Shown in pieces: positions 1,666-57,475 of a stretch of 64,000 nt of DNA. Origin of the DNA: a virus (lineage: Duplodnaviria > Caudoviricetes); the IMG/VR virus record IMGVR_UViG_3300050159_000048, one strand, 5' to 3'. The notes below the pieces were generated by a model. The model was given only the letters and a program-made list of their open reading frames with translations, was not told the origin of the DNA and ran no database searches. How positions within the stretch are numbered: the stretch's first letter is position 1; each line of letters starts with the position of its first letter. The translations under genes were made by a program, and so were the position numbers.

Positions 1666-4641
1666 TTATCCAAATACGAAGTGTGCACCCATGCCGTACT
1701 CATCCGGCTTATCGGCGATGTAGTCATCAATTTCCTGCAGACAAGCTTCAATTTCTTGCTGAGCAGCTTGACGCAATTCACCTGCGTTGAGTGTAATTGA
1801 GCCACCCGCTCCAGGGAGTGTAGAGAACTTGCCGCGCGTTTCTGCAAGCATCAAACGGCACATAGCAGCCGCATAGCGACGAATCCACGGATTGGCGTAA
1901 CGATCCGACATAATGTCTTGCTCCGTCCGCTCAATCGTTGCTTCAATTGCAACCATCTGCTCAGCCATGCTGAAGCGGTGGTGCAGGAACAATTCACGTG
2001 TTTGCTCATTCCATGTGTAGGTTACGCGTCCAGCAAATAGAATTTCCATCAACTTGGTGTATTCGCCCATCAAGTGGTAGCTCAATAGGTCAAAAGTGCC
2101 CATGTTGTACATATGTTGCATCACAATCTGGCCGTAAACGCCGGCGCCGTGTGCTGACGACAAGAATGAAGACGTTAAGCGGTACACGCCCAGCACATCA
2201 ACAATCTTGTTCATGTCTGATATTTTGTTGGTCAGGAAGAACTTCTGCTCATTCGCCTTGATGCTCATGAAGAAAAATCCGCGCTTGTACGCAACGCCGG
2301 AACGCATGCGCAGCTCACGAAGGGCTCGTGAGATTGCGTAATCCATCTGCTCCTTTGTGATTTCAACGTCAACATTTGGATAGCCTAATTCGTACCGAAT
2401 ATCCATGCCAATCTGCTCACGCATTGCCACTGAGCCGTCAGTACCAATGCCCATTTCCATGTACGTTGGTGTACTGGATGCCCCGTCCGTACCTGGAGAC
2501 AAGTCTCCAAGCGTTGGTGGAGTTGTCATTGAGCTGAATAGGTCGCCGTCCTTAATGCGAACCATGGAGGTGCTGCCAACCGTGTTGTCGGTGAACAGAA
2601 GATTGCCGTTGCAATCCAGTTCAACTGTAGCTGGCGGTGTCGCAGCTACCCACGCTGTTCCGTTCCATTGCTTCAGAATATTCGTAGTGGTGTCATACCA
2701 CATCGCGCCCTTGACTGGTGGTTGTGGGGTAGCGTTGTATACTACGGCTTGCCACGCCGCCCCGTTCCATTGCTGAAGGGCGTTGAATGGAGTGTTGTAC
2801 CAGAATGTGCCAATAGGCATCAAAGCTGGGTCTGTTGTAAATGCGACTGGCGTAATTGGAGACCATCCAGATACCGTACGTACGTGCCACACATTGCCGT
2901 TGTACCAAACGGAACCAACTGTTACCGCAGTTCGTGGATCAGTCGGCGAGGTGATTACAGCCTGCTCCGCAAAGCAGTTGTTACCGTAAATGTACAGCTT
3001 GCCTGTATCCGTGTCAATCCAAGCGGAACCATCCGCGAACGTTGGTGCCAATGCGGGATCGTTTGGTTGGTCTACAAAGTTTGTTACAGCAACCCACGAA
3101 TTTTGTAGTTGATCCCACACAAATAGGATGCCGGCTACGGTATTCCACCACGCATCGCACGAACCTCGCACGGTAGGATCATTTGGGAACGTAATAACGT
3201 CGTTCTCATTCCAGGATGTGTTGCTTGCATCGCGGATGTAGAGGTTTTCCGTGATCGGATTGTACCAAATCTTGCCCGGTGCAGGCGTAGACGGCTCAAC
3301 CTCACGAATGGAAACCCCAGAAACAACATTCCATCCAGCATTAGGAATGCCTAACTGCTTCAGGGTATTCGTGGACGAATCAAACCAGAATGCTCCTGGC
3401 TGTAGTTGTGTTGGGTTGACGTCCGATTCCATGAATTCGGCTGCATTCCACATCTCAAGCGCGGAATTCCAACGGTACAACCGGTTCAGTACTGTGTTAT
3501 ACCAAAACGACCCACCAACAGGAGCAACAGCAAGCGAAGGGTCTGTAGCTTGGACTGTGGTGCTAATTGAGCACCACGCGTAACCATTCCATAGATGAAC
3601 TACCGTACCGTCATACCAATACGACTTGTCCGCAGCAGGTGCGGCAGGGTCGAGTGGATTGTTGTATACCGTAACTATTACCCAAGCGTTCGTTTGCCAT
3701 ACTTGCAGCACGTTTGTGGTCGGATTAAACCAATACGTGCCGTCGGCAACAATATTTGGTTGGGATATGCCGACCAAACACGCAATCTCAGTGTACGATG
3801 TGCCATTCCACTGGAACAGTTTTGATTGTTGGGAGTTCCAGTAATAATGATTTGTGCCAGGCGATGTAGGACCTTGTGGAGCATTACCGATCAACGCTAG
3901 CTGTTTGTTGATTTCTGCAACCAGCGATTGGTAATCTTGAGCATTTGCGCTTGCGACATTAATGGTATACGTTGGCGCAACGAGATTACATTCGCCAACG
4001 TAGAGAGGACGAAGTGGCTTGGGATCTACTCCAAGCTGAATCGTGAAATTGTATATCGCTGGCTGTGGCTGTGCAGGAGGCAGAGGTGACGTTAGTAGCG
4101 GTAGTCCTGTGGAATCTGTAGGCTGCACGCCCGTGGGAATTGTCGTGGGCTTTAGGAATGCGATTTGAGTACCGCGTGTACCGTCCGTGCCGCGGTTAAC
4201 AAACTCAGTTGAATAAGCGTGAACGCCCTCCACAAAGTACCGGTGTTGGCAGTCAGCGGGGTATCCAGCCACAAAGTACGCTGTATTTGGCAGCAACCCA
4301 GTAATGTCCAGCATAGTGGTGACGCGGTCACCATAGAATGCGCCAACAACATAAGCATCACCGATTTTATCACCTGCGAACAGGTTGGAGTCTCCAGTGG
4401 GGTCGGAGCTGTATACCGTGCCGTTCTTTGGGGACGTTGAGGCGGACGCAGGAGTAGTGTTCAGCGTGAGAACAATACCACAATATGCTTGAGTTTCAGC
4501 ATCGCAGCCCGCAGCAGGGGCTGGAATGTTCCAACTAATACGTCCAGTATTTGGACCCGTTCGGTCAAACTTGATTGTAACATTTAACGCCTCTGAACGC
4601 AAGATTCCTGGCGCGGATAGTTGGATGTCGTAAGTGCTCAT
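1666..4641 (-). CDS. Neck protein, T4 gp13-like C-terminus with long N-terminal Trp-rich repeat extension
   Basis: 991 aa. C-terminal ELGYPNVDVEITKEQMDYAISRAL...RYAAAMCRLMLAETRGKF...GSITLNA is gp13-like. Confidence 0.75.
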   Translation of the reverse strand: MSTYDIQLSAPGILRSEALNVTIKFDRTGPNTGRISWNIPAPAAGCDAETQAYCGIVLTLNTTPASASTSPKNGTVYSSDPTGDSNLFAGDKIGDAYVVGAFYGDRVTTMLDITGLLPNTAYFVAGYPADCQHRYFVEGVHAYSTEFVNRGTDGTRGTQIAFLKPTTIPTGVQPTDSTGLPLLTSPLPPAQPQPAIYNFTIQLGVDPKPLRPLYVGECNLVAPTYTINVASANAQDYQSLVAEINKQLALIGNAPQGPTSPGTNHYYWNSQQSKLFQWNGTSYTEIACLVGISQPNIVADGTYWFNPTTNVLQVWQTNAWVIVTVYNNPLDPAAPAADKSYWYDGTVVHLWNGYAWCSISTTVQATDPSLAVAPVGGSFWYNTVLNRLYRWNSALEMWNAAEFMESDVNPTQLQPGAFWFDSSTNTLKQLGIPNAGWNVVSGVSIREVEPSTPAPGKIWYNPITENLYIRDASNTSWNENDVITFPNDPTVRGSCDAWWNTVAGILFVWDQLQNSWVAVTNFVDQPNDPALAPTFADGSAWIDTDTGKLYIYGNNCFAEQAVITSPTDPRTAVTVGSVWYNGNVWHVRTVSGWSPITPVAFTTDPALMPIGTFWYNTPFNALQQWNGAAWQAVVYNATPQPPVKGAMWYDTTTNILKQWNGTAWVAATPPATVELDCNGNLLFTDNTVGSTSMVRIKDGDLFSSMTTPPTLGDLSPGTDGASSTPTYMEMGIGTDGSVAMREQIGMDIRYELGYPNVDVEITKEQMDYAISRALRELRMRSGVAYKRGFFFMSIKANEQKFFLTNKISDMNKIVDVLGVYRLTSSFLSSAHGAGVYGQIVMQHMYNMGTFDLLSYHLMGEYTKLMEILFAGRVTYTWNEQTRELFLHHRFSMAEQMVAIEATIERTEQDIMSDRYANPWIRRYAAAMCRLMLAETRGKFSTLPGAGGSITLNAGELRQAAQQEIEACLQEIDDYIADKPDEYGMGAHFVFG

Positions 4642-4666
4642 ACTGAGATTTCCTCGTTATGAGCGT

Positions 4667-4674
4667 TATTTATG
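4667..4674 (-). promoter_or_regulatory. T4-like late promoter (CATAAATA)
   Basis: Motif 25 nt upstream of the neck gene start. Confidence 0.7.
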
Positions 4675-4687
4675 GGCTGAGAATAAA

Positions 4688-4715
4688 AAGAAAGCCGGCA
4701 TATGCCGGCTTTCTT
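4688..4715 (-). terminator. Rho-independent terminator
   Basis: 12-bp inverted repeat AAGAAAGCCGGC/GCCGGCTTTCTT with U tract on the minus strand. Confidence 0.8.
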
Positions 4716-4722
4716 GAGCGTA

Positions 4723-5443: not shown

Positions 5444-5467
5444 AAAAGGAGGCAACAGCCTCCTTTT
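5444..5467 (-). terminator. Rho-independent terminator
   Basis: AAAAGGAGGC-aaca-GCCTCCTTTT. Confidence 0.75.
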
Positions 5468-5485: not shown

Positions 5486-6040
5486 TTACATTCGTGATTG
5501 TCTCATCGCGGAATCCACCTTTTGTTGTAGTGTTCGAGCTCGTTTTGCGAGTTGTTCACCTTGAGGAGATCGCATGTCAACTGACTTGGTGTACTTTTGG
5601 ATCATATCCGCGTACATTTGTTGAATGTTTGGATACCGAGAGCCGTGTTGAGCAATGATGCGCACAGCGTCCGTGACAAGTCCGTCTGGTGCTACACTAG
5701 CTTTTAGTAGCACGTTGAGAGTGTTGGATTTTTTGATTGGGTCGTTTGAGTTGGGCAGTTGGAACGACAGAGCGTGGATTCCAGCAAGAAAAGACGCTAC
5801 AGAGTTCAAATGCATCAATTTAATTGGTTCGCCTTTTTCGGCTGTAGTCGCAATGTTTGCGAGAACGTGCGTCGCAGCTTCCGATAGCTGGTGGGCATCT
5901 TCTGCTAAACGAGCCAGCCCTGCTTGTATTGCTTCTTGTTCTTCAGCTTCGCGCTTGATTGCCAGCGCTGTTGCTGGGATTAGCTTGAGCTTTGGTGCGT
6001 CACGACGTTGTTTTACAACGTCAGCAAGTTTTGTGTCCAT
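5486..6040 (-). CDS. Hypothetical protein (late, head module)
   Basis: 184-aa ORF with GGAG RBS; overlaps the upstream ORF. Confidence 0.7.
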   Translation of the reverse strand: MDTKLADVVKQRRDAPKLKLIPATALAIKREAEEQEAIQAGLARLAEDAHQLSEAATHVLANIATTAEKGEPIKLMHLNSVASFLAGIHALSFQLPNSNDPIKKSNTLNVLLKASVAPDGLVTDAVRIIAQHGSRYPNIQQMYADMIQKYTKSVDMRSPQGEQLAKRARTLQQKVDSAMRQSRM

Positions 6041-8885: not shown

Positions 8886-8930
8886 GTTGGAGTCTCCTTA
8901 GGAATTTGCACTATGCAAATTCGTGTGTTT

Positions 8931-8938
8931 TATTTATA
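8931..8938 (-). promoter_or_regulatory. Late promoter, perfect T4 consensus TATAAATA
   Basis: Upstream of the scaffold-capsid genes. Confidence 0.85.
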
Positions 8939-14082: not shown

Positions 14083-14100
14083 ATGTTTACCCTTGAGATT

Positions 14101-14138
14101 GTGGTATTTACGTTATTGATCCCTGTATTAAATACCAC
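14101..14138. promoter_or_regulatory. Divergent pair of late promoters forming a 10-bp inverted repeat
   Basis: GTGGTATTTA (14101-14110) and TAAATACCAC (14129-14138). Confidence 0.7.
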
Positions 14139-14155
14139 ACACATAAGGAGAAACT

Positions 14156-15496: not shown

Positions 15497-15979
15497 TCAG
15501 TCCGGCATGCGCGCAATCCAATACGCGTCGGTCAAATCCGTGAGACCGGTAGTCTTCTTAAAGCCTGCGTCTAAAAACTTCTGTCGAACGTCGTCTGAGA
15601 GTGCTTCTATCATTGCCTTTTTATCAGCCTTGCCACTTCCTGTGGCCTTCTTTTTCACCGAAGTAGGTGCGTATTCCTTGAATACGATAGTGGGGTGCTC
15701 GTAAGCAACAAGATTGACGATCGTAAACAACAATCCAGCCAAGTCTCGAGTTGCATCCCCTCTGATTCCGAAAGCCAATCCTTCTGCTTTAAGCATCGTT
15801 GGATTATGTTTCTTGATCAGTTCACAGATTTTCTTTGCGGTTGACAACGCACGGGCGTATGTAGTGTCCGTTTTTTCGGTTGTAAACCGTCCGAATTCTT
15901 CCATCTGCTGTGATTCAGTGTTCCACAATACGTATCCACAGCTAGTATACGATTGGTCAATTCCCAGTACAAGTGCCAT
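15497..15979 (-). CDS. ruvC: RuvC-like Holliday junction resolvase
   Basis: LGIDQS, KAEG, PTSVKKKATGSGKADK, DLTDAY acidic active-site pattern. Confidence 0.9.
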   Translation of the reverse strand: MALVLGIDQSYTSCGYVLWNTESQQMEEFGRFTTEKTDTTYARALSTAKKICELIKKHNPTMLKAEGLAFGIRGDATRDLAGLLFTIVNLVAYEHPTIVFKEYAPTSVKKKATGSGKADKKAMIEALSDDVRQKFLDAGFKKTTGLTDLTDAYWIARMPD

Positions 15980-16018
15980 TTTACCCTCTCTAAACCTATT
16001 TAAGAGGGTAAAATGGCA
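15974..16018 (-). promoter_or_regulatory. RBS-sequestering hairpin with a late promoter in its loop
   Basis: 16-bp perfect inverted repeat covering the SD and ATG; TAAATA at 16002-15997. Confidence 0.8.
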
Positions 16019-16025
16019 GTGATTC

Positions 16026-17783
16026 TTATGCTGGTAGCGGTTCCTGGAGAATTCCGCTGAACCCCTTGCTGAGTTGAACCGTCATTTTGCGGTCGAACAT
16101 ACCGTCAATTTCAGCACGGTGAGAGATCACAAAAGTAGAGGTCTTATGTGTGCGAGCTAGATGCTTGATCAAGTATGCGCAAGCAGTAACTCCGCCAGCA
16201 TCCAGGCCATAATCTAGCACTTCATCGAATACAGTAAGGTTTGTTCGACCGTACAGACGAGACCGCACATCACGAAACGCCAAAGATAGCGCAAAGTGAA
16301 TGCGAGCGCGTTGCCCCGTAGACATCAGGCCGACGTCGAACTCACTACCAAGTTTGGTGATCATAACGTCAAGCTCATGGGTGAACTCAATAGAATGTGG
16401 CAATCCGAGATCCGCTAGGTAGTTCTTCAACTGCTTATTCAGATACGGCAGGTTCTTATTCAGCAATGCCTTACGAACGAAACTATCATTCTTCGTCAGG
16501 AGCTTGAGCAAGAAGTCTTGATGTTTCAATTCCTTGTCTAGAGCGTTAGCCTGCTCATAATCAACCTCATCAAGCTTGACGTCTAGCAGCTCTTGCAGAG
16601 GTTCCTCATACGGATTCTGCGCCACTTCACCTTCAGCGATACGCTGTCGGAACGAAGATGCTTGATCGCGGATGGCCAACAACTCAGTCAAATTAGGCAC
16701 AGTAATCTTCGCAGACACCGTTTCTGCCTCCCGCTCGAGTTGTGTGATCTTACGGCTGATCATCTGACGCACCTCTGTGGCCTCTGCTAACTCCTCGTTC
16801 AGTGCAATTTGTTGGGTTGACAGACGAGTGATGTTTGTTGCGGCGTCGGGGTGTCCCTGCATGCAGTACGGACACTTGTTATCCCGCAGATGGATCAACT
16901 CCTCAGCAATCTTACGCAGTGCGGTATTCAGATCAGCAATTGTGCGGTCCTCAAGCTTGAGCTCTGATCGCAGTTCACGAATCGCAGATTGTACTTCAGC
17001 AACTTTGGCGTGAAGTTCACGCTCAGCGTCGAAGTCAATGTTGTCAATCTTCGCCAGCTTGGTTTTCAAATCTGCAACGGTTTTGGCGTTTTGAATCACC
17101 CAATCCGAAACGCGACGCTTGGCTGTTTCGATAAGAGTAGAATGCCGCTCATGTTCACGAATTAGTTGATCAATCGTGCTCTTTTTGTGCACGAGTTCCT
17201 TCTTGGTATCCTTGATCAATGTACGCAGCTTGTCAGCCTTGTCGGAAATGACAGTAATACCAAAAATCTCTTCAATGAACTCTTTTTGCTTCGGGCTGGG
17301 CAAATCCAGAAAGCCTTCTGTGCTGGCCTTGAATGCAACGATCTGCTCAAACATATCAGCAGGAATACCGATTGTTTGGGCAATAATCTTGTTGGTATCA
17401 CCATTAGGTACAACAGTGATGTCCTTGCCGTCTTCGTAGAAGAATACCTTGTTACCCTCTGCACCAGCCTTCATCTTGCGCATCCGGTGGATCTTGTAAT
17501 GCTTGCCATTGACAGCAAACTCCAAGATCACTTCCATCTGCTTTTTGTTGACGTTGTTGACGAGGCTGTCAACAGGGACTTTGCGGGGTGATTTATCAAA
17601 CAAGACATACACCAAAGCGGTGAGCACGGCTGTTGATTTACCAACGCCGTTACTACCGCCGTCGATGTGGTCTAGGTTCTCCCCAACAATCAGAGTGGTT
17701 CCGCTGATGTTGAGGGGTACTGTGGTTAAGTTGTTCCCGTACGACAGGAAATTGCGTAGGGAGATGGAAATGAACTCAATCAT
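16026..17783 (-). CDS. Recombination endonuclease ATPase subunit, gp46/SbcC/Rad50-like
   Basis: Walker A GVGKS, zinc hook CPYC, signature MSTGQ, Walker B FDE. Confidence 0.95.
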   Translation of the reverse strand: MIEFISISLRNFLSYGNNLTTVPLNISGTTLIVGENLDHIDGGSNGVGKSTAVLTALVYVLFDKSPRKVPVDSLVNNVNKKQMEVILEFAVNGKHYKIHRMRKMKAGAEGNKVFFYEDGKDITVVPNGDTNKIIAQTIGIPADMFEQIVAFKASTEGFLDLPSPKQKEFIEEIFGITVISDKADKLRTLIKDTKKELVHKKSTIDQLIREHERHSTLIETAKRRVSDWVIQNAKTVADLKTKLAKIDNIDFDAERELHAKVAEVQSAIRELRSELKLEDRTIADLNTALRKIAEELIHLRDNKCPYCMQGHPDAATNITRLSTQQIALNEELAEATEVRQMISRKITQLEREAETVSAKITVPNLTELLAIRDQASSFRQRIAEGEVAQNPYEEPLQELLDVKLDEVDYEQANALDKELKHQDFLLKLLTKNDSFVRKALLNKNLPYLNKQLKNYLADLGLPHSIEFTHELDVMITKLGSEFDVGLMSTGQRARIHFALSLAFRDVRSRLYGRTNLTVFDEVLDYGLDAGGVTACAYLIKHLARTHKTSTFVISHRAEIDGMFDRKMTVQLSKGFSGILQEPLPA

Positions 17784-18839
17784 TTAGAGGCGCCGGTATT
17801 GTTGTATTAGTAGGGCGTTATCAATTTGGTCTGATTTGATGTCTGAGAGCATCTGAACAATCAAGTCATCAATCGTCGTTCCGTCTGTATCACCCGATGC
17901 TTCAGGAACATCAACGTCCGTTTCCGTTCCGCTGATGGCTTCGACAGCATCTTTGGGCTCTTCGTATGTGAATTCACGCAATTCAAATTGCTTCATCATT
18001 AGTTCCCGTAGATTGTTTGTCTCTTCAAGTGACAATTCCTCATCTAAGACACATTTCACCCGTGACTGAGGACGTATAATAATACCTCCATCCAGGATCT
18101 TTGACACCTTGAACCGGAGGTAAAGGGGAGCGTCCGGCCAATCTTGGAATGTTACATCGCGGATGGTATGGTCGTATACGGCCATACCTCGACTGTAATC
18201 ACCAACGTCACCAAAGTCCATTGGAAATGTGTTGCCGATGTATACAATGTTGTCCTTCTGCTGTCGTTGATGGAAATGGCCTGACAGAATGTGTTCTGGG
18301 CCCGCGAACTTTTTGTGGTCAGGTCCGTGTTGCATTACCATGCTGTAACCGGTAACGCGGAAACCTTGAAATTCGAAGTGTCCTGCCCAAAACGGTAGAC
18401 TCAGATACTCGTCCAGCTTGTCGTACTCTTCGTGAAATAGATACGGACTGAAAAAGGCCCCATCCCCTATTTCTGGAATAATCGTTGGGGTATCGATCAC
18501 ACGAAAATTCGAAAACTCCTGGAATGGTAGGACGGAGTAGATTTCTCGCGTATGTCGATGATACAGGTCGTGATTCCCAACAACAAAGTAAACTGGTAGA
18601 CCTAAGTCGTTTAGCATTTTTGCGCCAGTATACGAATACGTCAGAGTTGCTAGGTTGATGGCGCTACGGTTTTCATTCCAATCACCCAAGAACCCAACGT
18701 AATCGATCGTTGGATCGGCCCGCACTTGCTCACAAAACCACCGCAGGTGGTTTAGACAGTCTTGATTGTGTATTGGTGAGTTGGACTTCTTGCCGAAGTG
18801 GATGTCGGTAAGAAACGCACCTTTCTTCAGTTGTGTCAT
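17784..18839 (-). CDS. Recombination endonuclease nuclease subunit, gp47/SbcD/Mre11-like
   Basis: DIHFG, GD, GNHD and GHFH metallophosphoesterase motifs. Confidence 0.95.
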   Translation of the reverse strand: MTQLKKGAFLTDIHFGKKSNSPIHNQDCLNHLRWFCEQVRADPTIDYVGFLGDWNENRSAINLATLTYSYTGAKMLNDLGLPVYFVVGNHDLYHRHTREIYSVLPFQEFSNFRVIDTPTIIPEIGDGAFFSPYLFHEEYDKLDEYLSLPFWAGHFEFQGFRVTGYSMVMQHGPDHKKFAGPEHILSGHFHQRQQKDNIVYIGNTFPMDFGDVGDYSRGMAVYDHTIRDVTFQDWPDAPLYLRFKVSKILDGGIIIRPQSRVKCVLDEELSLEETNNLRELMMKQFELREFTYEEPKDAVEAISGTETDVDVPEASGDTDGTTIDDLIVQMLSDIKSDQIDNALLIQQYRRL

Positions 18840-19450
18840 GCCAAGCTGTCCTCGCTGCTATCAGCATCATCCAGCTCAACGGCTGCCAATTCGTCAGCCA
18901 TTTCCGCAACCTCTTGGTCAATGATTTCGCGACCATTCTCATCGCGTTCGATTGGAGCATCAATGAATTGAACCTTTTGTTGGCGCTCAATGCCAGACGA
19001 AAGAGTGTCGAAGTCTTGCTCATCTTCAATGTAGTGTCGATCACTACCATCTTCGTTGAAACCAAACGAAGGATTTAGCCCCTGTGCAATCATCATCTTG
19101 TCGCGCAACACACGATGTTTCTTTTCGTGCTTCAGATATTGTGAGAACGAGTTCTTAATGCACTGGGTGTAGAATGCGAATGGATTGCTACTGACTTCAG
19201 GATTGAAACTCTTCCAGGTTCGCACAATCATCATCATAGCGTACGCTTGCATGTCTTGATTGTATGAATAGCCGCTGTAACTGCCCTTCATAGCATACCG
19301 CGAACACAGCAATTGCAGCATCTTGGCGAATGTGTTGGACATTTCGCCCTTCTCCTGCGACGCCTTGTACTCAGCTAGCAGTTCCTTATTGTTGAGATAG
19401 ATCGTACGACCGTTTTGTGTAATTGATGTGGGGTAGTTTTTGGTTGCCAT
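18836..19450 (-). CDS. Late transcription sigma factor, gp55-like
   Basis: YLNNKELL, FNPEVSSNPFAFYTQCIKNSF. Start at ATG 19450 preferred. Confidence 0.88.
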   Translation of the reverse strand: MATKNYPTSITQNGRTIYLNNKELLAEYKASQEKGEMSNTFAKMLQLLCSRYAMKGSYSGYSYNQDMQAYAMMMIVRTWKSFNPEVSSNPFAFYTQCIKNSFSQYLKHEKKHRVLRDKMMIAQGLNPSFGFNEDGSDRHYIEDEQDFDTLSSGIERQQKVQFIDAPIERDENGREIIDQEVAEMADELAAVELDDADSSEDSLA

Positions 19451-19485
19451 GTGGTTTTTAACCTTCTTGGTGAGGTTTTGAGTTG

Positions 19486-19514
19486 ATAGTACGCCAAAAA
19501 ATTGGCAAGGGCAA
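19486..19514 (-). promoter_or_regulatory. sigma70 promoter of the gp55-gp47-gp46 operon
   Basis: TTGCCC-N17-TACTAT. Confidence 0.6.
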
Positions 19515-19517
19515 CGG

Positions 19518-19525
19518 GATAAATA
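19518..19525 (+). promoter_or_regulatory. Late promoter (GATAAATA)
   Basis: Upstream of the baseplate operon. Confidence 0.7.
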
Positions 19526-28768: not shown

Positions 28769-28811
28769 TACCCTCTCATAAATATCCATGAACATAGCAT
28801 ATGAGAGGGTA
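28769..28811 (+). promoter_or_regulatory. RBS-sequestering hairpin overlapping late promoter CATAAATA (28777-28784)
   Basis: 12-bp perfect inverted repeat TACCCTCTCATA/TATGAGAGGGTA just before GTG 28817. Confidence 0.75.
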
Positions 28812-28816
28812 ATCCC

Positions 28817-31800
28817 GTGTCCAATCAGTCTGACCACAAGAAGCCATCGCTTGACATTACTACACTACTGCCTGAAGTATACCAGTCAGAGGTAGGAGAC
28901 GGCGTATTCAAGAACGCCTTCAATCGTCACCTAACAAAGGACGACACGTCGCGTGTTGCTGGTTTTGTGGGTACTGCAAACCCGAGCGCCCTTGTTGATC
29001 GTCAGATCAAGGAGGCGGACGCGCACCGTCAAGCATTCCAACTAGCTCCCACTATGATTTCAACGGTGGGAACTCAAACATCCACATTGTCATTTAAGGC
29101 ATTCCTCCGTCAACTATCCTTGATGGGTATTGATATTGACCGCATGGATGATTGGGCTGCAACAGAACAGTTCAACTGGGTACCTCCCGTCAACGTTGAC
29201 ATGTTGGTCAACTATCAAGACTACTTCTGGAAACCTGCTAGCGCTAACGATGCCCCACAATACTTCACGGTAGAAAACCGGTGTAACAAGGCACAAAGCC
29301 GCGTCCAATCATATCAACAAGTTCTGAACATCCGTGGAGATGCCTTCGTTGTTACCAGCATGAGCTTCGCCACTAACACCCTGAACATTGCGGGTCGTTA
29401 CGATGACGTGTTCAGCACAGGTTTTGATTTCTACACCAAGGATTCCAACAACGTCAATTTCCGCAACAAGTTCTGGACGGTTGAATCATCGTCGTATGAT
29501 ATCAGCACTAACACAACAGCGATTGTTGTACTGGAGCCAATGGCAACAAGCAGTGAAACTGCTCCTCTACAGCCTCGGGTTGACCAGCTGTGGTACGTGC
29601 CGTCGACAGCACAAATGTTCACGTGGACAGGATCTGCGTGGGTTGCCGCTGCTCAATCATACACTATCTCAATCTCACTTGAAGAGCAGCTCACTGTATA
29701 CCAAGCCGAAGCTAATTGCATTTGTAACCAGACTTCTGGTTGGGACACAGCAGCATGGGATGACAATAGTTCCACCGGTACCTCATGGACTGTTGCTTGG
29801 CTGCAAGGTATCTCGTTCAACACCGCTTTACAGTGGGTCGCTACCAACGGTCAACCGGTAAACGGATCACAGTGGTATAACACAACAACCGATGAGTTGT
29901 TGACATACAGCACTGCATCCAATGGTTGGGAACCTGCGCAGCTTGGTCTGTCGCAATTGATCGACCGCCTTAACGGTAAAGCTCTGTGGGACATGACTCA
30001 GGGATGTGAGAGTCAACGCCATACTCAATGGTCTGACAACAATCGCTGGATTCACAAATCTCAAGTGCAGTCATATGCGGACGTGCGCCGAGCTCAGCTA
30101 CCAATCTTGGAATACTCTAGCCGCATTGAGTTGAATCAATGGTCACATTTCAACTACGTGTGGAAATACCGCAGCTCGACGGACGATGCATTCGCAACAT
30201 CCGACTACCGTCCAAGCCGACTGGAGCTGGAACCTATCAAGGGATATTTTGCCGTTAGTATTGGTGGAGCTTGGTACATCTACCTAAGCAACAACGTCAG
30301 CCAGATGGACGTGGACATTGACTACACCAGCACCTTTACTTCGGGGTATCGCTTCCGTGTAACCGACGACTCGCTTGTGTCGCAGGTATACACCGTCGAA
30401 TCTAGCGAGTACCGTCAAGTATCACCATCCGAAGCAGCACACGCAGTGATCCAAGACACGTTTGCCACAGTGATTAAGCTGGTTGAAACCACGTTCACCA
30501 GCTCCGTAACTGGCGGCGGTTCCGCCCACGCCCGTATCGAACCGATGCGCACATCGCGTGGCGACGGCTGGCGCGGTTATCATGTTCACTGGGTGCTAAA
30601 CGACACAGCTACAACGACAACAGCTACGAGCAATGCGTCGGTGAATCCTCGGTTGCAAACATCGCTGGATAGTGAAATCACACCGGTGTCTACATCAACG
30701 CTATCAGCTCACTTTGATACAGGTCAAGCATTTCAACCAGCCAACTTGCCTATTGAAATTGGTTCACTGCATCAAACTGTGTTCGTCGGCACCTCCCCAA
30801 TTTCACGCATCGACTTGCTGGATAAGTTCCGTTACCAACCCTCTCTAGCTGCCGTATACGCTGCTCCCAACACAAACAACCTGCGAGTCTACGTCAATGA
30901 CGTACGTCAGTTCAACACTTACACGGAAGTTGTGGGCGTTAGCACTCGTGACGTAACGGTCATTGGTAACGTTGCAAACACCACAGGCACCGTTGTTGAA
31001 TATGTGCAAGCTGTTGAGTTCACTCACCCGCTACAACCTTTGGATCAAGTTCGTATTGAAGTTGGCCCTGCTGCTTTGTCGGAGATGGGTTGGTCGCACG
31101 TCCCTGTTCGCACAATTGAGGATGAAACTCAGTTTGCTGTTGCCGTTAACAATGGCACTCAACCAGAATATCGTTCAATGGTCTCGATCCGTAAGATCGA
31201 ACAGGTGAAGAGCATCACCAACCAATACCCACTGTTCAACGCATATGATGTTGTGACGGGTGAAGTTGTTGACGCAAACCCCCTGTTTGCTTTCCACGAG
31301 GATGCATCCTTCTACGTCAACACGTCAGTTGACCGCCGCATTTCTGTATCTACAGACGGGAAGGAGTTTGAATTTGAACAGTACTTGGTTGAGGATGATG
31401 ACGGCCAAATCTACGGATACCGCCAAGGCCCGGTTACCGTAGAGTACTGGTTCAACCCAACCACCAGTGTGCTGAAGGCTTGGAAAAATGGCGGTTGGGT
31501 CACTAAGCTACCCGTACCACTGGCGCTGGGCGTTGTGTCGTACGTCACACCCACCATTGCCACCATAGCACCCGCAGCGGTCGACGGTGCTGTTTGGTAC
31601 CACCCTACAACAAACGTGTTGCGTGTTCGCTCGAACAACCTGTGGACAGTAATTCCTGGCGTGCTGGCGTCGGAGACAGACCCAACAATCACCACAATTT
31701 GGCGGAAGGACGATACAGCGATGTACGTCCCGCAGTACCTTGACAAGGATGGTAACGAGGTTACTATTGGATCCGCTGATGGTGATTGGGGCATTGTTGA

Positions 31801-43458: not shown

Positions 43459-43466
43459 TGTAAATA
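43459..43466 (+). promoter_or_regulatory. Late promoter (TGTAAATA)
   Basis: Upstream of ORF 43499. Confidence 0.6.
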
Positions 43467-43498
43467 TCTACATGGTACAAGATTATAGGAGATATACC

Positions 43499-43876
43499 AT
43501 GACTCACGTTTCATATCAGCGCCAAGTATCACCAGACTTCCATCACGTTGAATGGTTGGAGTTGTATGGTGACGGCATGCTACACGAGTGCGCGATTATG
43601 AAGCGCACTGCAGACGGCAACGTCCTGTACTTCCGTACTGCCGACCTAGATAACATTGACAAGCAGCGTCTGGCAGAAATCCTGTCGAACCGCAACGCCG
43701 CTCAACTAGAGCTGTGGGATCTGATGCAAAACATCACGATGCGCAACGGTGTTAATGCTCTGACCTATTTCAACCAACTGGTCAAGTTGCTGACACCGTC
43801 GGGTAAGATTGTTGACCCACGAGCAGGTCAGATCGGTGGCCGCGTAGCAGCTCCGAATCAACCAGTAGCCGCATAA
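43499..43876 (+). CDS. Hypothetical protein
   Basis: Start at ATG 43499 after AGGAGATATACC. Confidence 0.7.
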   Translation: MTHVSYQRQVSPDFHHVEWLELYGDGMLHECAIMKRTADGNVLYFRTADLDNIDKQRLAEILSNRNAAQLELWDLMQNITMRNGVNALTYFNQLVKLLTPSGKIVDPRAGQIGGRVAAPNQPVAA

Positions 43877-52332: not shown

Positions 52333-53453
52333 TACTTAACCCTCCCGATGATGTACTGAGCAATGTCGTGTGGGCGGAGACGACCCTTAGGAACATTCAA
52401 CTTCTTGGTTGGGCGAAGCTTTGATACACCCGGAGCGCGATGCGTTTCTTCCTCTTCATGTGACGACATGGAGATTGGCTCTAGGCTGTCATCGTCTTGA
52501 TCACCGCCGCCGTCTCGTTGGCCCATCTCATGTTTGAATTTGGCCAGCTGAGCCAAACGCTTAGCTTCGCGGTCTTCATCCTTGCGCGCCTTGTTGTATG
52601 TTTCCATGTCAAGGTACTGTTCTTCTTGCTTGACGCGAGACATTGCTTGAGCTACGATGGCATCAGCTTCCTTGGCCTTGGCTTCAGCCTCTTTGGCGCG
52701 AGCCTCAGCCTTGCGTGCTTCCGCGTCAGCCTTCATCATGTCAATCACTTGGGTGAGCAAGTCCTGAACCTGACCATCTCCAGCGCCACCCGTATCCATG
52801 CCCATATCCATGTCAGCTGATGGGTCAAGATCGAGATCACCGCCTTCTGGGTCCGGTTCTTGGCCTTCACCACCCGCAAGTTGTGCTTCTTGCTCCTCAT
52901 CTTCAGCGATTTCCGGCCACTGAACGTCAACAATGTTGAACTGGTCCTTTAGCTGGAACAAGATTTCTGCAATTTCGGGGACATCCTCGTCTGTACCTTC
53001 ACGATCCATCAAGAACGATTCTAGGGCACGCTCAAAATCATCAGCTTCTTCAGATTGAACAACAACACGGATCAATCCACCGTTATCGTCTTGCAAGCCA
53101 AACGTTACTGTATTGCGGTTGTCTGTTGTTTCACGCTTTTCCAAACCCTTCAGCTTGCCGATTAGGCTGTCACGATCAAAGTTGTTGGTGTTACCTTCGT
53201 CTTCGTCGGGATTTGCCAGGTCTTCGGAAACAATGTTGAATGCTTCACGAAGCTTGGTGGTCTTGGTGATTTTCTTGGCTTTGGGTTTGGTGCTAGGCTC
53301 AACAATTGGTTCTGCGACCTTTGGTTTCGCGCGCCGTACCATTTGGGCAAACAGAGGCGTGCCCGCAGAGGCAATTGAGCCCCCGCTGACTGCACCCATT
53401 GCTGCTTCTTCCGATACCATGGGGCGTGTGTTGAGTTTTTTGATTAGGTTCAT
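52332..53453 (-). CDS. Acidic coiled-coil late protein, possible internal head protein
   Basis: Start at ATG 53453 with GAGG RBS; several [ILV]xE motifs near the N-terminus. Confidence 0.65.
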   Translation of the reverse strand: MNLIKKLNTRPMVSEEAAMGAVSGGSIASAGTPLFAQMVRRAKPKVAEPIVEPSTKPKAKKITKTTKLREAFNIVSEDLANPDEDEGNTNNFDRDSLIGKLKGLEKRETTDNRNTVTFGLQDDNGGLIRVVVQSEEADDFERALESFLMDREGTDEDVPEIAEILFQLKDQFNIVDVQWPEIAEDEEQEAQLAGGEGQEPDPEGGDLDLDPSADMDMGMDTGGAGDGQVQDLLTQVIDMMKADAEARKAEARAKEAEAKAKEADAIVAQAMSRVKQEEQYLDMETYNKARKDEDREAKRLAQLAKFKHEMGQRDGGGDQDDDSLEPISMSSHEEEETHRAPGVSKLRPTKKLNVPKGRLRPHDIAQYIIGRVK

Positions 53454-53455
53454 GA

Positions 53456-53492
53456 GCCGTCCTCGTATTAGTGTCGGGTATTTATGGACGGC
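53456..53492 (-). promoter_or_regulatory. RBS-overlapping hairpin with late promoter CATAAATA in its loop
   Basis: GCCGTCC...GGACGGC 7-bp stem; TAAATA at 53484-53479. Confidence 0.6.
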
Positions 53493-53498
53493 AAAAGG

Positions 53499-53523
53499 AA
53501 AAGCCCGCACAAGGCGGGCTTTT
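53499..53523 (-). terminator. Rho-independent terminator
   Basis: AAAAGCCCGC-acaag-GCGGGCTTTT. Confidence 0.8.
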
Positions 53524-53529
53524 GTTGAG

Positions 53530-53826
53530 TTAGCGAAGACCGCTCTGCTTGAACGCTCGCCATTTCGGCTCAATCTTGTCACCTGTGGTATGTTCTACCC
53601 AAGTTTCGAAGTTGAACATCGTGGACATCATGCGGTCACGGTACTCACGGTACTCTGCGTGCAGCTTCGCGATGCGCTCACGTTCAGCTGGCTCCACATC
53701 CGACAAGTCGATCGCACGAATCAAATCCGACGGCAGAGACACTGGCAGAATGACGCGGGTAGTGACATCCTGCTTGCCTTGACTTTCGTACACAATAGAC
53801 GTGATTTGGTTCTCGGTCAGATTCAT
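53530..53826 (-). CDS. Hypothetical, WYL/SH3-like pattern
   Basis: IVY...G...TTRVILP...AIDL...WRAF. Confidence 0.4.
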   Translation of the reverse strand: MNLTENQITSIVYESQGKQDVTTRVILPVSLPSDLIRAIDLSDVEPAERERIAKLHAEYREYRDRMMSTMFNFETWVEHTTGDKIEPKWRAFKQSGLR

Positions 53827-54107
53827 TCTGCCGCTCCCTCAGCACCGTCGTTGGCAGCGGGTAGGAGGCCCAGGTTCTGCGCCTTTTGCATGGCTTCTTC
53901 ACGCTCCTGCTTCAGCATCTGAACCAGAGCGGTTTGAGCGTCGCGCAGCGCGCTTCGCACCATCAGCAGGTCAGACGACAGGTCCGCCTCCTTCTGACGC
54001 CAATCGTCAAAGAAGCCAACGAGCTGCTGCACTTGTTCGCTCATCTTGGCAACTTCATAGGTTGCATCGTCAAGTTGAATGGTCAGGGTGGGTTGTACGG
54101 GTTTCAT
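53823..54107 (-). CDS. Small coiled-coil hypothetical protein
   Basis: 94 aa with AGGAG RBS. Confidence 0.7.
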   Translation of the reverse strand: MKPVQPTLTIQLDDATYEVAKMSEQVQQLVGFFDDWRQKEADLSSDLLMVRSALRDAQTALVQMLKQEREEAMQKAQNLGLLPAANDGAEGAAE

Positions 54108-54126
54108 ATAGTTCTCCTAGGAAATT

Positions 54127-55479
54127 TTACTGGCCGTCGCCAGTATCAAACAGATCATCCCAACCACGCTTAGTGGATTGGTTCTTTTTGATTTTGTTGG
54201 GGTCGATCACACCATCGTCATCGACCGGGTCGGCGTCTCGATTAAGAATGCGTAGGAAGCCGTTGTCCCACTTGAGGAACAGTTGCTTACCGACAGCGTC
54301 GCTACTGCGGGACTTAAGGAAGACAAATCCAATTTCTCCTGCCGCCTTCATGGTTGCATTCATAATGATCGACACATACCAGTCAACGGTATTCACTTTA
54401 CTGATACCGCCTGCGATGTGTCCCTGATTTAGTTCTTGTGCATCAATAGCTGAACGGTTCTGCTGCGATGCGGTTGCTCCGAACATATTGAAGTCAAACA
54501 AAATGTCGCGCAGCTGTTCTGTGGCACGCTTATCCTTTTCAAACACGTTATCGGCTGATACATGTTCATTAGCCCCCATCAGGTCGAGATAGTCAACGAC
54601 TATCATATCGGGGACATACCCATGAACGAGCTCAAACTCCTTTAGATACGCGCGAATGCGGTTGCTGTTAGTGCCAACAGGCATCCGCTTAATCGTCAGC
54701 TTGCCCATCTGTGGAGCAACAAGGTTAATCGTTTGAGCGATCTCATCCTTGTGTTGTGCCCAAATAACCGACGACACGCCCGACAGCATCTGGTCAAACC
54801 GCTGTGCGATCATTTCTTCGGAGAGTTCCAAAGAAAGATACAGCACGTTCATCTTCTCTTTGCTGCCCGGTGTCCGGGATTGCATCAGGAAGTTTAATGC
54901 TAGGTTGGCAAGCGTAATAGACTTACCACCACCTGAGTTGGCTGAGAACAGTAGGATTTCTTTGCGTGCCAATCCACCACCAAGCAGATCATCAAATTCC
55001 TTCCAACGAGTTGGAGTGCGCAAGGGAACCCTGGATTGTTCATCGAGGCGAACATCTGGGTTCGAGAAGTAGTCCAACCCCAGGTCGCGGTTCAGAGAAA
55101 TTGTGATCGCATCGCGGATTAGCTGCTCGGCCGTACCGTAGTCAACGTCCGATGCAACTTCGTTGATTAGCTTGGAAGATTTAACAATCGCTTGCTCGAA
55201 TGCGCGTCGCTTGCAAAACGCTTCGATCTGGTCGGACATGAACTTGATCTCTGCACGAGAAACGTCGTCACGAGCCTTTAGAGAGACATTGGTCTCAGCA
55301 TCAATTTGAGAGGGCGTGGGGGTAGCGTTGTACTTGTCGTAGTACTCGTGGATAAAGTCCACAGTTTTGCGCAAGTCGGGGTCGAAGTAATCCGACTTGA
55401 TGATGTGCTTACACAGAGCGAATGTGTCGGGTGACGACACCACATATTCAAGGAGCAATCGTTGTTTTTTGTTATTCAT
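54127..55479 (-). CDS. Replicative DNA helicase, gp41/DnaB-like
   Basis: ANSGGGKS, LSLELSE, VVDYLDLM, TASQQNR, LKSRSS. Confidence 0.95.
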   Translation of the reverse strand: MNNKKQRLLLEYVVSSPDTFALCKHIIKSDYFDPDLRKTVDFIHEYYDKYNATPTPSQIDAETNVSLKARDDVSRAEIKFMSDQIEAFCKRRAFEQAIVKSSKLINEVASDVDYGTAEQLIRDAITISLNRDLGLDYFSNPDVRLDEQSRVPLRTPTRWKEFDDLLGGGLARKEILLFSANSGGGKSITLANLALNFLMQSRTPGSKEKMNVLYLSLELSEEMIAQRFDQMLSGVSSVIWAQHKDEIAQTINLVAPQMGKLTIKRMPVGTNSNRIRAYLKEFELVHGYVPDMIVVDYLDLMGANEHVSADNVFEKDKRATEQLRDILFDFNMFGATASQQNRSAIDAQELNQGHIAGGISKVNTVDWYVSIIMNATMKAAGEIGFVFLKSRSSDAVGKQLFLKWDNGFLRILNRDADPVDDDGVIDPNKIKKNQSTKRGWDDLFDTGDGQ

Positions 55480-55501
55480 TAGTCATCCTCATCAGAAGGT
55501 G

Positions 55502-55530
55502 ACTATATTACAATACAGCGGTTACGTCAA
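55502..55530 (-). promoter_or_regulatory. sigma70 promoter for the helicase
   Basis: TTGACG-N17-TATAGT. Confidence 0.75.
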
Positions 55531-56526
55531 CAGAATGTGCGGGTAAATTGACCGAATTACCGATTTTTGAGCATACGCTTTTCCCTGAGCATAGTACAAT
55601 TCAGGTTGTGAGCTGTTAATGTACCCAAGGTCGATATACTGGTCATAGACTCGGTCCACATTTGTGTGAGGAGAGCGACTCAGTAGTAGCAGCACTTCAC
55701 CGGGCTGCGGTTGGCCCGATCCGTTGAAACTGTATGGGTAGAATAATGAACCGTTGGAGATTGCGCCAACAGAGAAATACAGTGGCGCGTTCGGAGTCGT
55801 CACGATGTTGAAACTACGTAGAATGTATTGATTACCGTTGGCAACAATACTCTCATACCCAGCCCAAGGCGAGTTGATTGACGGCACATAGTCAATACCA
55901 ACATATTCAATGGTGTTGTTGGATGAGCTACCTGAGTAGAATGTGACACCCAAACTAACCATTGGCGAAGTTGCCAACGTAGCAATCGTAATTTCGCCCG
56001 CATTTGTAGAAATCTGGACTGGGGCAGTATCGGAACTGGTTGACGACAGAGCCATTGGATTCACAGTGTTTTCCGATGACAATGCGATGCATTGTACCAA
56101 TCCTGATACAGCAACGTCAAACGTCAGGATGACCGTGTTCGAGTCAACGATTTGAGTACTCGTTGGAGTTCCGGGCTCTAGTGTGGCACTACCAGAGGAG
56201 GTGTCGCGATACACGTATACGTGTAGAATTGGACGGTTTGCTAGATTATGCTTTACAATCCATTGATTGGATTGTACAGGTTGTTCGTGAGTGTACAACA
56301 CCTTGCGTTGGTGCCAATCTTGCAAACCTTCTACCTCAGGAGGGAACGCTGGCGTGGCGTTAATCTCTTTGGTCTGAGTTACACGGTTTAGCTTACCTTG
56401 GCAGTTGTAAGTAATGATGCAGCGCTGCATCACTTCCATTCCCTGCTTATTTGCAGGGACACGGACGCGACGCTTGCACGTCGTGCATTCATATACGCTT
56501 TCACCTTTGACTACAACTGCTGGCAT
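55522..56526 (-). CDS. Probable virion protein with N-terminal Cys4 motif
   Basis: CTTC...CIITYNC, then YTHEQ...WIVKHNL motif typical of phage structural proteins. Confidence 0.55.
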   Translation of the reverse strand: MPAVVVKGESVYECTTCKRRVRVPANKQGMEVMQRCIITYNCQGKLNRVTQTKEINATPAFPPEVEGLQDWHQRKVLYTHEQPVQSNQWIVKHNLANRPILHVYVYRDTSSGSATLEPGTPTSTQIVDSNTVILTFDVAVSGLVQCIALSSENTVNPMALSSTSSDTAPVQISTNAGEITIATLATSPMVSLGVTFYSGSSSNNTIEYVGIDYVPSINSPWAGYESIVANGNQYILRSFNIVTTPNAPLYFSVGAISNGSLFYPYSFNGSGQPQPGEVLLLLSRSPHTNVDRVYDQYIDLGYINSSQPELYYAQGKAYAQKSVIRSIYPHILLT

Positions 56527-56528
56527 GA

Positions 56529-56843
56529 TTACATCATTTCAAGACGATCTAGCTGACCAGCTAGAATGATTTTGGATGTGCGTTCCAAATAAGCCTTTTC
56601 CAGGTTGGCTGGGACCTTGACTGCGAACGACATCACGGTGTTCAGGTTGAATACATGCTGACCTTCAGCGTCAACCAGACTGTGAGGGAATAGATCCAGT
56701 ACAACCGACTCGCCACGTTGCATTGGACGGATCACCAATGGTTGTTCCAGTGTGATTGTGTTTTGTTCGAGGTTGCGTTCAACAACACGCCCGATAACTT
56801 CTGCACCAGCGATGGTGACAAACAGCATTAGTTCTGTATTCAT
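56529..56843 (-). CDS. Sm-like fold protein (family common in T4-like phages)
   Basis: LFVTIAGAEVIGRV...ITLEQPLVI...AYLERTSKII pattern. Confidence 0.5.
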   Translation of the reverse strand: MNTELMLFVTIAGAEVIGRVVERNLEQNTITLEQPLVIRPMQRGESVVLDLFPHSLVDAEGQHVFNLNTVMSFAVKVPANLEKAYLERTSKIILAGQLDRLEMM

Positions 56844-56851
56844 AGTATACC

Positions 56852-57436
56852 TTATTTGTTATGATTAGTATTTAGTAGCTTACCGTATCCGTCACACGCA
56901 CTGGCTCGGACCGCATAGTAGTACGGAATCCCATACAGTATCACCTCCGCGTCGGCAGAAATGCCTTCGTGAAGGTTATGCGTGACGTATGTGTACCTCA
57001 CAACATCTGCAATGATGGAGGAGGCTTCTGCCTTGTCGTCTAGCTCTTCAACCAGGGCGGTTAGAGCCGTTTGGTAAGCCGTATTTGATTCATGTACTTC
57101 TTTGCTGTACATGAACTGATATCCGTCGATTGGGAAGACGTAGAACGGCTCTGTGTTTTGAGGCAGGGATGGAGTGTTTGGGTAAGCAAAGATTGCGCGT
57201 TGGCGAATATTACTGAACTGCTTACCGAATGCCATATTAAACGCGTCGGACACGTCGTCTTTGCGTTTTTGTTGGCGAACTTTCACCTTGTGAAAGTTGT
57301 GATACGTCACTGGGAGAGCTTTGAGTAAAGGCAATCCAGCCGACTCTTTTAGGAACTGTGCGCAATCAGTCTTGATCTTTTGCACCTCGCGAATTCCAAG
57401 ACCAACGCTCGTTCCAATAATGTCCTCAATGAGCAT
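56852..57436 (-). CDS. Hypothetical late protein
   Basis: 194 aa; start codon region held in a 13-bp hairpin. Confidence 0.7.
   Translation of the reverse strand: MLIEDIIGTSVGLGIREVQKIKTDCAQFLKESAGLPLLKALPVTYHNFHKVKVRQQKRKDDVSDAFNMAFGKQFSNIRQRAIFAYPNTPSLPQNTEPFYVFPIDGYQFMYSKEVHESNTAYQTALTALVEELDDKAEASSIIADVVRYTYVTHNLHEGISADAEVILYGIPYYYAVRASACDGYGKLLNTNHNK
56869..56876 (-). promoter_or_regulatory. Late promoter (ACTAAATA) inside the upstream gene end
   Basis: Upstream of ORF 56843. Confidence 0.5.
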
Positions 57437-57475
57437 ACTTTCCCCTTTGACGGGTATTTAGGGCTCATTGAGGAC
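57422..57475 (-). promoter_or_regulatory. Start-sequestering hairpin with a late promoter in its loop
   Basis: 13-bp perfect inverted repeat GTCCTCAATGAGC/GCTCATTGAGGAC; TAAATA at 57460-57455. Confidence 0.8.

Follow-up and report, generated by a model that had tools for sequence, protein, structure and literature searches.

Hairpins that join late promoters to gene starts in an uncultured T4-like jumbo phage resemble the translational gates of T4

Introduction

In bacteriophage T4, a helix formed on early transcripts of the genes e, soc, 49 and I-TevI sequesters the Shine-Dalgarno (SD) sequence and/or the AUG, whereas transcripts of the same genes that start at their late promoters lack the 5' part of this helix and are well translated (PMC3014915). 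T4-like phages also carry composite early promoter/terminator stem-loops, named PeSLs, which have been implicated in modular shuffling (PMC2839356, PMC4122927). The present work deals with five hairpins in a stretch of 64,000 nucleotides (the window) from an uncultured T4-like jumbo phage (Caudoviricetes; IMG/VR record IMGVR_UViG_3300050159_000048), each of which links the late promoter motif TAAATA to the SD, the start codon or the first codons of the following gene. Hairpins of this kind occur at late gene starts in excess over chance, have a 5' arm that is cut by the predicted transcription start, and recur at orthologous genes of related phages, and we consider it likely that the five are translational gates of the T4 type.

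The window is the minus strand of positions 88087-152086 in one 183,069-bp virus contig (G000; 49% G+C), which was found in leaf-litter metagenomes and is rated about 52% complete. The encoded major capsid protein shares about 60% identity with its counterparts in XacN1 and Xoo-sp13, two Xanthomonas jumbo phages, T4 being only distantly related. Since megablast and blastn searches of window pieces against a phage collection returned no close relative, covariation among near-identical genomes was not open to study. Related IMG/VR genomes were reached through protein searches, namely G001 (350 kb, complete with terminal repeats), G002 (155 kb) and G003 (148 kb). None of the sequencing runs listed for the phage is an RNA run. 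Contigs from four DNA runs over positions 53380-57560 belong to the same strain and contain zero variants in the hairpins.

Results

Five hairpins at late gene starts

All five inverted repeats of the original prediction, which had interpreted them as a hairpin-gated late promoter design, were found where it had placed them (Table 1). The 5' arm had been described as lying upstream of TAAATA or overlapping it, and this is so at loci 2, 3, 4 and 5, but at locus 1 the arm starts 2 nt downstream of the motif and spans the predicted start site. The 3' arm lies on the SD or the start in every case, as had been stated. Folding energies were calculated for the isolated RNAs, and z-scores against dinucleotide shuffles (Table 1). 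As a measure of opening, the mean unpaired probability in an RNA beginning 60 nt upstream of TAAATA (read-through RNA) was compared with that in an RNA beginning at the predicted late start.

In the read-through RNA, the predicted unpaired probability is near 0 at loci 1, 2, 3 and 5 (SD, AUG or first codons), and an opening of the SD/AUG in the late RNA is predicted at loci 2, 3 and 5 and at x181229. At locus 2 the predicted value rises from 0.15 to 0.65 for the SD and from 0.00 to 0.89 for the AUG; at locus 3 it rises from 0.09 to 0.56 for the SD and from 0.18 to 0.71 for positions +3 to +14, and the latter positions go from 0.00 to 0.53 at locus 5. Loci 2, 3 and 5 are strong cases, and loci 1 and 4 are weak when taken alone: their 7-bp stems are individually near chance, and recurrence in orthologues is what speaks for them, and nothing else. 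None of the five sits in a divergent spacer; the spacers to co-directional upstream genes measure 46-81 nt, and no terminator precedes loci 2, 3 and 5. The resolvase gene of locus 2, ruvC, is the last gene behind those of the gp55-like, gp47-like and gp46-like proteins, with no convincing terminator between them, and read-through into ruvC from an earlier operon is plausible.

TAAATA as late promoter and the predicted start site

The behavior of TAAATA as a gp55-type late promoter is supported. On both strands of the contig, 46-50 of the 81 copies of the motif sit 17-52 nt upstream of a start on the same strand, a spacing for which only about 3% of positions would be expected to qualify (our estimate, from the 209 called genes), and the corresponding figures are 80/112 in G001, 54/88 in G002 and 44/74 in G003. 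Most copies are preceded by A or CA, and the full TATAAATA is rare here. As the original prediction had supposed, a gp55-like sigma factor is encoded in the window (Table 1), with matches to PHROG 234 (late sigma factor, E 1.7e-23) and to T4 gp55 (E 1e-5). No match to a homologue of T4 gp33 was obtained in the contig, a result that is uninformative because the contig holds only about 52% of the genome.

The predicted late start, the 6th nt after TAAATA, was taken over from T4. Among ORFs of at least 60 aa, G002 and G003 display a sharp peak of ATG codons exactly 5 nt after TAAATA (7 and 6 cases, respectively, with 0-2 at other offsets), which points to late mRNAs without a leader that begin, as in T4, with the 6th nt, and suggests independent support for the start rule. 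With such a start, none of the 5' arm would remain in the late RNA of loci 2, 3, 4 and 5, that of locus 1 would be shortened by 3 of its 7 nt, and loci 2, 4 and 5 would be insensitive to the exact start nucleotide because their 5' arm lies upstream of the motif.

One case of the leaderless type was seen in the window at 43461-43474 (+), where an ATG at 43472 (134-aa ORF) rivals the SD-led start at 43499.

Enrichment at late gene starts

Crude gene calling on the contig gave 209 genes and 88% coding sequence. To count as a gate, a stem had to consist of Watson-Crick pairs throughout, enclose a loop of 3-45 nt and reach at least the length given with each count; in addition, 3 nt or more of its 5' arm had to lie before the predicted start, and its 3' arm had to share 3 nt or more with the region from -15 to +5 of the start codon. 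The null consisted of 200-300 segment-wise dinucleotide shuffles, and non-late starts were scored with pseudo start sites at the same distances. A swap control, in which the 5' parts were exchanged between genes, was inflated, as hairpins just after TAAATA survive the exchange, and segment shuffles were used instead.

Gates of at least 7 bp were found at 12 of the 50 late promoter-start pairs of the contig, against a shuffle mean of 2.4 (maximum 8); at least 9 bp was reached by 7 gates against 0.2 in shuffles, and at least 12 bp by 4 against 0.01, and none of these counts was ever matched by a shuffle. In the window alone, 5 of 21 late pairs were gated at 7 bp or more, with about 1 expected. 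Only 7% of the non-late starts of the contig were gated (odds ratio 4.0, p = 0.002). For the same threshold, the relatives gave 18/80 late pairs in G001 (shuffle mean 4.2), 6/54 in G002 (2.8) and 9/44 in G003 (2.1), and in the four genomes pooled, 45 of 228 late and 54 of 899 non-late starts were gated (odds ratio 3.8, p = 2e-9). The check that had been proposed with the original prediction, in which late starts were to be set against other starts and shuffled sequence, came out in favor of an enrichment.

A part of the counts may nevertheless be due to inverted repeats that arose by chance and have no function, mainly among the 7-bp stems of loci 1 and 4 and the 6-bp candidates, since shuffles yield 2.4 stems of at least 7 bp and 8.3 stems of at least 6 bp per 50 late regions, so that about 2 of the 12 would be accidental; the accessibility effect at locus 4 is also small. 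For the stems of 12-17 bp at loci 2, 3 and 5, by contrast, the shuffle expectation is 0.01, and even the short stems recur, the orthologues being gated in 3 of 3 relatives at locus 1 and in two or three at locus 4, there with compensatory changes. Chance is an unlikely explanation of the five hairpins.

The identical scan was run on T4. With TATAAATA as the promoter, gates were found at 9 of 21 pairs, and with ATAAATA at 14 of 28 pairs, corresponding to 12 of 26 distinct starts, against 4.3 in shuffles. The scan recovered e, soc, 49 and I-TevI and is validated by these four classic cases; I-TevII, segB and others were found in addition, and two T4 pairs (53/4 and 26/51) score as gates as a side effect of divergent promoters or divergent SDs. 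The idea that the arrangement is more widely used here than in T4 fails on these figures, the T4 share being at least as high with either motif.

Position of the hairpins relative to the transcript

Every stem of at least 7 bp in the late regions was classified by its position. Hairpins on the ribosome-binding site (RBS) whose 5' arm is cut by the predicted start were enriched 4.8-fold in G000, 5.0-fold in G001 and 4.7-fold in G003, as well as 1.6-fold in G002 and 3.5-fold in T4. RBS hairpins lying wholly inside the predicted late RNA numbered 1, 0, 0, 0 and 0 in G000, G001, G002, G003 and T4, respectively, about 2.4 being expected in total for the four jumbo genomes. The gate class accounts for 43 of the 44 RBS hairpins, against an expected share of 0.81 (p ~0.001, our binomial calculation). 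This excess of cut arms, with the near-absence of RBS hairpins inside the late RNA, fits a gate and not a general excess of palindromes.

An enrichment of 3-5 fold was also seen for hairpins that lie entirely on the upstream side of late promoters, that is, for terminators of the upstream genes, and loci 1 and 4 have one each (Table 1). This last enrichment would suit a role in RNA processing or stability, with the hairpins acting as 3' end protectors, pause or termination signals or RNase III-type sites and RBS occlusion as a by-product, and so would the short spacers after co-directional genes in which loci 2, 3 and 5 lie and the long perfect stems of 13-17 bp, which could serve as nuclease substrates. 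Such a role, however, leaves unexplained why the SD or start is regularly found in the 3' arm and the promoter inside the hairpin. Moreover, the 3' arms are not followed by a T run, the terminators upstream of loci 1 and 4 are separate and canonical, and no Rfam family was matched at the gathering score anywhere in the window. We regard processing or stability as quite an improbable explanation.

The hairpins could also be read as palindromes that act in the DNA, either as operators for a dimeric regulator of late promoters or as cruciform or hairpin DNA modulating promoter opening. The promoter lies in the loop or an arm in every case, and perfect palindromes are equally stable on both strands, a comparison of sense with antisense strands having revealed no bias. 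Nevertheless, the arm sequences, the stems (7-17 bp), the loops (4-28 nt) and the position relative to TAAATA vary, so that there is no common operator; the 3' arm follows the SD or start codon and not the promoter; enrichment of RBS hairpins is confined to those with a 5' arm cut by the start site; some stems of orthologues contain G-U pairs; and the identical architecture of T4 acts at the RNA level (PMC3014915). A function in the DNA is therefore very unlikely.

Recurrence in related genomes and classes of gated genes

The gp13-like gene of locus 1 carries a gate stem of 7-8 bp in 4 of 4 genomes with differing sequences, the 5' arm of the orthologues lying at or just after TAAATA and the 3' arm on the SD or ATG. 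At locus 4 the geometry is the same in G001, with two compensatory pair changes and one added G-U pair, and the orthologues in G002 and G003 have a shifted 8-bp stem and a stem of 5+4 bp, respectively. At locus 5, about 10 of 13 distinct homologous loci pair a segment whose end falls within the promoter or shortly before it with the start-codon region, even though codons 2-5 differ. In one of these, with a 13-bp stem, a synonymous ATT-to-ATC change is matched by an A-to-G change in the 5' arm; other homologues form stems of 7-10 bp on quite different codons, and two have an SD-covering stem instead. The G001 orthologue of locus 3 has a bulged 12-bp gate of another sequence, and L009 keeps the gate in part.

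For ruvC, a hairpin over the SD or start is present in 7 of 9 distinct relatives; a canonical TAAATA lies in or over the 5' arm in three of them, and the others have TATATA-like loops, which may or may not be promoters. The orthologues of a weaker sixth candidate of the window (Table 1) have gate stems of 6, 7 and 6 bp in G001, G002 and G003, respectively. Overall, 13 of 26 orthologues were gated for gated genes, versus 10 of 40 for ungated late genes (p = 0.035).

The six longest stems in the contig belong to the RuvC resolvase, two HNH endonucleases, the 194-aa protein of locus 5, the 3327-aa ORF of locus 3 and a 186-aa protein, and the gated genes of G001 include a GIY-YIG homing endonuclease and an endolysin-like protein. 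By their predicted functions, the gated classes match those gated in T4 (49, I-TevI and e).

The same arrangement at sigma70-type promoters

Long RBS hairpins are also borne by non-late starts, many of which stand behind a sigma70-type promoter (TTGAC-N17) whose -10 region forms the 5' arm. At strict sigma70-type pairs, stems of at least 9 bp occur at 3 of 16 in G000 (shuffle 0.06) and stems of at least 7 bp at 8 of 42 in G001 (shuffle 1.6). Therefore, the gate is not a special layer on the late sigma alone. The original prediction had spoken of such a layer on the gp55-like sigma: the gates are indeed enriched at late starts, but they are not late-specific, since sigma70-type promoters of G000 and of a relative share the arrangement.

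That the five late hairpins are mobile promoter/stem-loop cassettes of the PeSL type, serving modular recombination and not translation control, deserves hardly any credence: a promoter within a hairpin is common at the sigma70-type promoters of G000 and PeSLs are described in T4-like phages (PMC2839356, PMC4122927), but PeSLs are early-promoter/terminator composites with similar copies, whereas the late hairpins share no arm sequence and stand in conserved late gene blocks at orthologous positions.

When the five were tried as PeSL cassettes, they presented TAAATA but no TTGAC-N17 -10 pair, no T run and no common arm sequence, and the assignment was rejected.

Several sigma70-type gates were recorded outside the window (Table 1), in which TTGAC-N16-18 promoters have their -10 region in the 5' arm of a 9-13 bp hairpin and the SD or start of the next gene in the 3' arm. 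An example within the window, at 55477-55530 (-) upstream of the gene 54127-55479, has a stem of 6 bp only and was found by eye. The sigma70-type gates are probably related to PeSL cassettes. Early promoters inside terminator hairpins were also seen, at 74060 and 178996 on the plus strand of G000 and at 130313 on its reverse complement; here the 5' arm lies in the spacer or the -10 region, and behind the 3' arm comes a T run, so that only read-through RNA would terminate.

Neighboring genes and other hairpins of the window

The proteins of the window include gp6-like, gp13-like, gp46-like and gp47-like members, and one T4 baseplate protein is also encoded. Searches with the first 1000 aa of the 3327-aa ORF of locus 3 gave no Pfam or PHROG match, and G001 has orthologues of similar size. 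The proteins of loci 4 and 5 matched only hypothetical phage families in Pfam, PHROGs and a protein atlas. Upstream of 19450, where the gene group before ruvC begins, a weak sigma70-like site was noted by eye only, and a promoter/terminator consensus scan of 14000-21000 yielded no more sites than shuffles.

The predicted late leader of the scaffold-like gene (7950-8885) contains a 9-bp hairpin at 8902-8922 (-), placed after TAAATA 8931-8936 and before the SD; this hairpin leaves the RBS uncovered and may be a 5' stabilizer. On the opposite strand, the crude gene calling made a spurious 31-aa ORF of it. The 11-bp hairpin at 14962-14993 (+) has an SD-like sequence in its 5' arm, an ATG in the loop and no TAAATA, its 3' arm lying in the first codons of the 62-aa ORF 14980-15168. 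In the 73-nt spacer 14083-14155, two late promoters diverge (TAAATA 14105-14110 on the minus and 14129-14134 on the plus strand), and according to the folding prediction the RBS of each gene is strongly occluded in long RNAs, an effect that may in part simply follow from the complementarity between the SDs and promoters of the two genes, as in T4 26/51 and 53/4. Finally, the terminator-like hairpin at 5444-5467 (-), after the gene 5486-6040, pairs an SD-like sequence with its complement ahead of a T run, and was miscalled as a 30-aa gene by the crude gene calling.

Table 1. Hairpins, genes and terminators discussed in the text, in window coordinates unless G000 is named.
Feature	Position	Strand	Stem (bp)	5' arm	3' arm	TAAATA	Fold (kcal/mol)	z	Remarks
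Locus 1 hairpin	4636..4672	-	7	4658-4664	4636-4642	4667-4672	-11.2	-4.2	3' arm over ATG 4639-4641
Locus 2 hairpin	15974..16018	-	16 (17 with terminal U-A)	16003-16018	15974-15989	15997-16002, inside loop	-27.4	-7.1	3' arm holds SD and ATG (15977-15979)
Locus 3 hairpin	28769..28819	+	12	28769-28780	28800-28811	28779-28784, overlaps 5' arm	-19.2	-5.0	SD in 3' arm; GTG start 28817
Locus 4 hairpin	53456..53492	-	7	53486-53492	53456-53462	53479-53484, in loop	-12.3	-3.5	SD in 3' arm; ATG 53451-53453 of 373-aa protein
Locus 5 hairpin	57422..57475	-	13	57463-57475	57422-57434	57455-57460, in loop	-29.5	-7.9	3' arm over G of ATG (57434-57436) and codons 2-5 of 194-aa protein
Weaker sixth candidate	43461..43501	+	6	43464-43469	43490-43495	43461-43466			3' arm beside SD; ATG 43499
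Locus 1 gene	1666-4641	-							991-aa gp13-like neck protein, PHROG 211
Locus 2 gene (ruvC)	15497-15979	-							RuvC-like resolvase; Pfam RuvC E 5e-10
Locus 3 gene	28817-38800	+							3327-aa ORF directly after gp6-like baseplate wedge gene
Genes upstream of ruvC	16026..19450	-							Co-directional: gp55-like 18836-19450; SbcD/gp47-like 17784-18839; SbcC/gp46-like 16026-17783
Terminator-like hairpin and T run	4686..4716	-							Strong; directly upstream of locus 1 late promoter; from sequence and fold
Terminator-like hairpin and T run	53497..53530	-							Directly upstream of locus 4 late promoter
Sigma70-type gates outside window	G000 119238, 155254, 175981	reverse complement							
Sigma70-type gates outside window	G000 70065, 72081	+							

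Discussion

Our findings suggest a model in which each gated gene would own a gp55-type late promoter, TAAATA, with transcription starting, by analogy with T4, at the 6th nt after the motif, and in which a segment upstream of, over or just past this promoter can base-pair with the SD, the start codon or the first codons of the gene. Read-through RNA from upstream promoters would carry both arms, fold into the hairpin and be poorly translated, while RNA from the gene's own late promoter would lack all or most of the 5' arm and leave the ribosome site open. The synthesis of the protein would thereby be coupled to the firing of the gene's own late promoter. For T4 e, the difference in translation is about 100-fold. 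We think that the five hairpins are probably translational gates of this T4 type. The mechanism would then be the known one of T4 in a new and distant lineage of jumbo phages, and not a new mechanism.

Several points weigh against this reading. The start site, the read-through transcription and the repression and relief of translation are inferred, and the folding results are not uniform. At locus 1, the unpaired probability of the AUG goes from 0.00 in the read-through RNA to 0.26 in the late RNA, and the latter value would become 0.66 with a start 2 nt later and 0.00 with a start 2 nt earlier; at locus 4, the SD opens little in the folding model (0.47 to 0.64). Loci 1 and 4 stand right behind strong terminators, which may let little read-through pass. 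The genes upstream of locus 3 are themselves late (baseplate), so a gate there cannot act as an early/late switch and would have another role, such as making the gene independent of the late operon before it. Gated and ungated late genes were alike in how their upstream neighbor is oriented. In a set of 72 gate stems, neither the folding energies of the sense and antisense strands nor the numbers of G-U pairs were biased. This comparison does not separate an RNA from a DNA palindrome and is uninformative because the stems had been picked as perfect Watson-Crick repeats. Lastly, among all 50 late genes, a drop in accessibility greater than 0.3 was found at 6, against 2.3 with shuffled upstream segments; this excess is modest, which limits the device to a minority of the late genes.

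The original prediction had also seen in the hairpins a systematic design used throughout the genome. This part is not borne out, given that modest excess and the share of late promoters that are gated: with about a fifth to a quarter of them, the gate is a minority device and not a universal design.

A broader rule for the clade can be put forward only tentatively, and we hold it to be rather doubtful. In a sizeable minority of genes, behind sigma70-type as well as gp55-type promoters, an anti-RBS arm in or beside the gene's own promoter would license translation only on the gene's own transcripts. Under the same tentative rule, RBS hairpins within a gene's own RNA would be selected against, and the promoter motif would be reused as an anti-start sequence, where CAT before TAAATA might pair with the AUG, and AATA with a TATT after the SD. 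If this were true, promoter-coupled translational licensing would be an organizing principle of compact phage genomes and not a matter of a few special cases, and the rule would explain the gates on late genes that stand behind other late genes.

Under the reading of the five hairpins as T4-type gates, the classic delay trick of T4 for proteins that are dangerous or needed late would exist in an uncultured and very distant lineage as well, where it is enriched and has been maintained. The same functional classes would be gated with non-homologous proteins (RuvC in one case, endonuclease VII in the other), which suggests either an old origin or repeated convergence. In addition, the scan may be used to annotate late promoters, to predict strictly late genes and to flag candidates for nucleases or lysis proteins, for example the 194-aa family of locus 5.

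Comparison with known systems places the five hairpins nearest to the T4 gates. Like the PeSLs, they superimpose a promoter on a stem-loop, and many such structures exist at the TTGAC-N17 promoters of G000; unlike the PeSLs, they have a promoter of the gp55 type, lack a T run, vary in sequence from one to the next and reach to the RBS. In phage Aeh1, according to what Gibb and Edgell (cited in PMC3014915) reportedly found, an RNA hairpin sequesters the RBS of the homing endonuclease gene mobE, which lies among genes transcribed earlier. The mobE hairpin is a parallel, in another phage and on another gene, to the two gated HNH genes described here.

Several features set the present hairpins apart from those of T4. 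With up to 16-17 bp, as compared with 7-12 bp in T4, their stems are longer, and they also have a higher G+C content; four strong cases hold the entire promoter within the loop. The promoter is the core TAAATA, seldom the full TATAAATA, and the gated resolvase is RuvC-like and not homologous to T4 endonuclease VII. The T4 mechanism is established by experiment (PMC3014915), and the gates reported in this work are predicted from sequence. In their design they agree with T4 nonetheless: a gp55-type promoter lies in or next to the 5' arm of a helix over the SD and/or AUG, and resolvases, homing endonucleases and lysis enzymes are among the gated classes, the lysis enzyme and the GIY-YIG endonuclease being those of G001. 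The solution of T4 e and I-TevI, where the promoter's AATA and the next few nt pair with the SD and the TATT that follows it, is even shared by several relatives.

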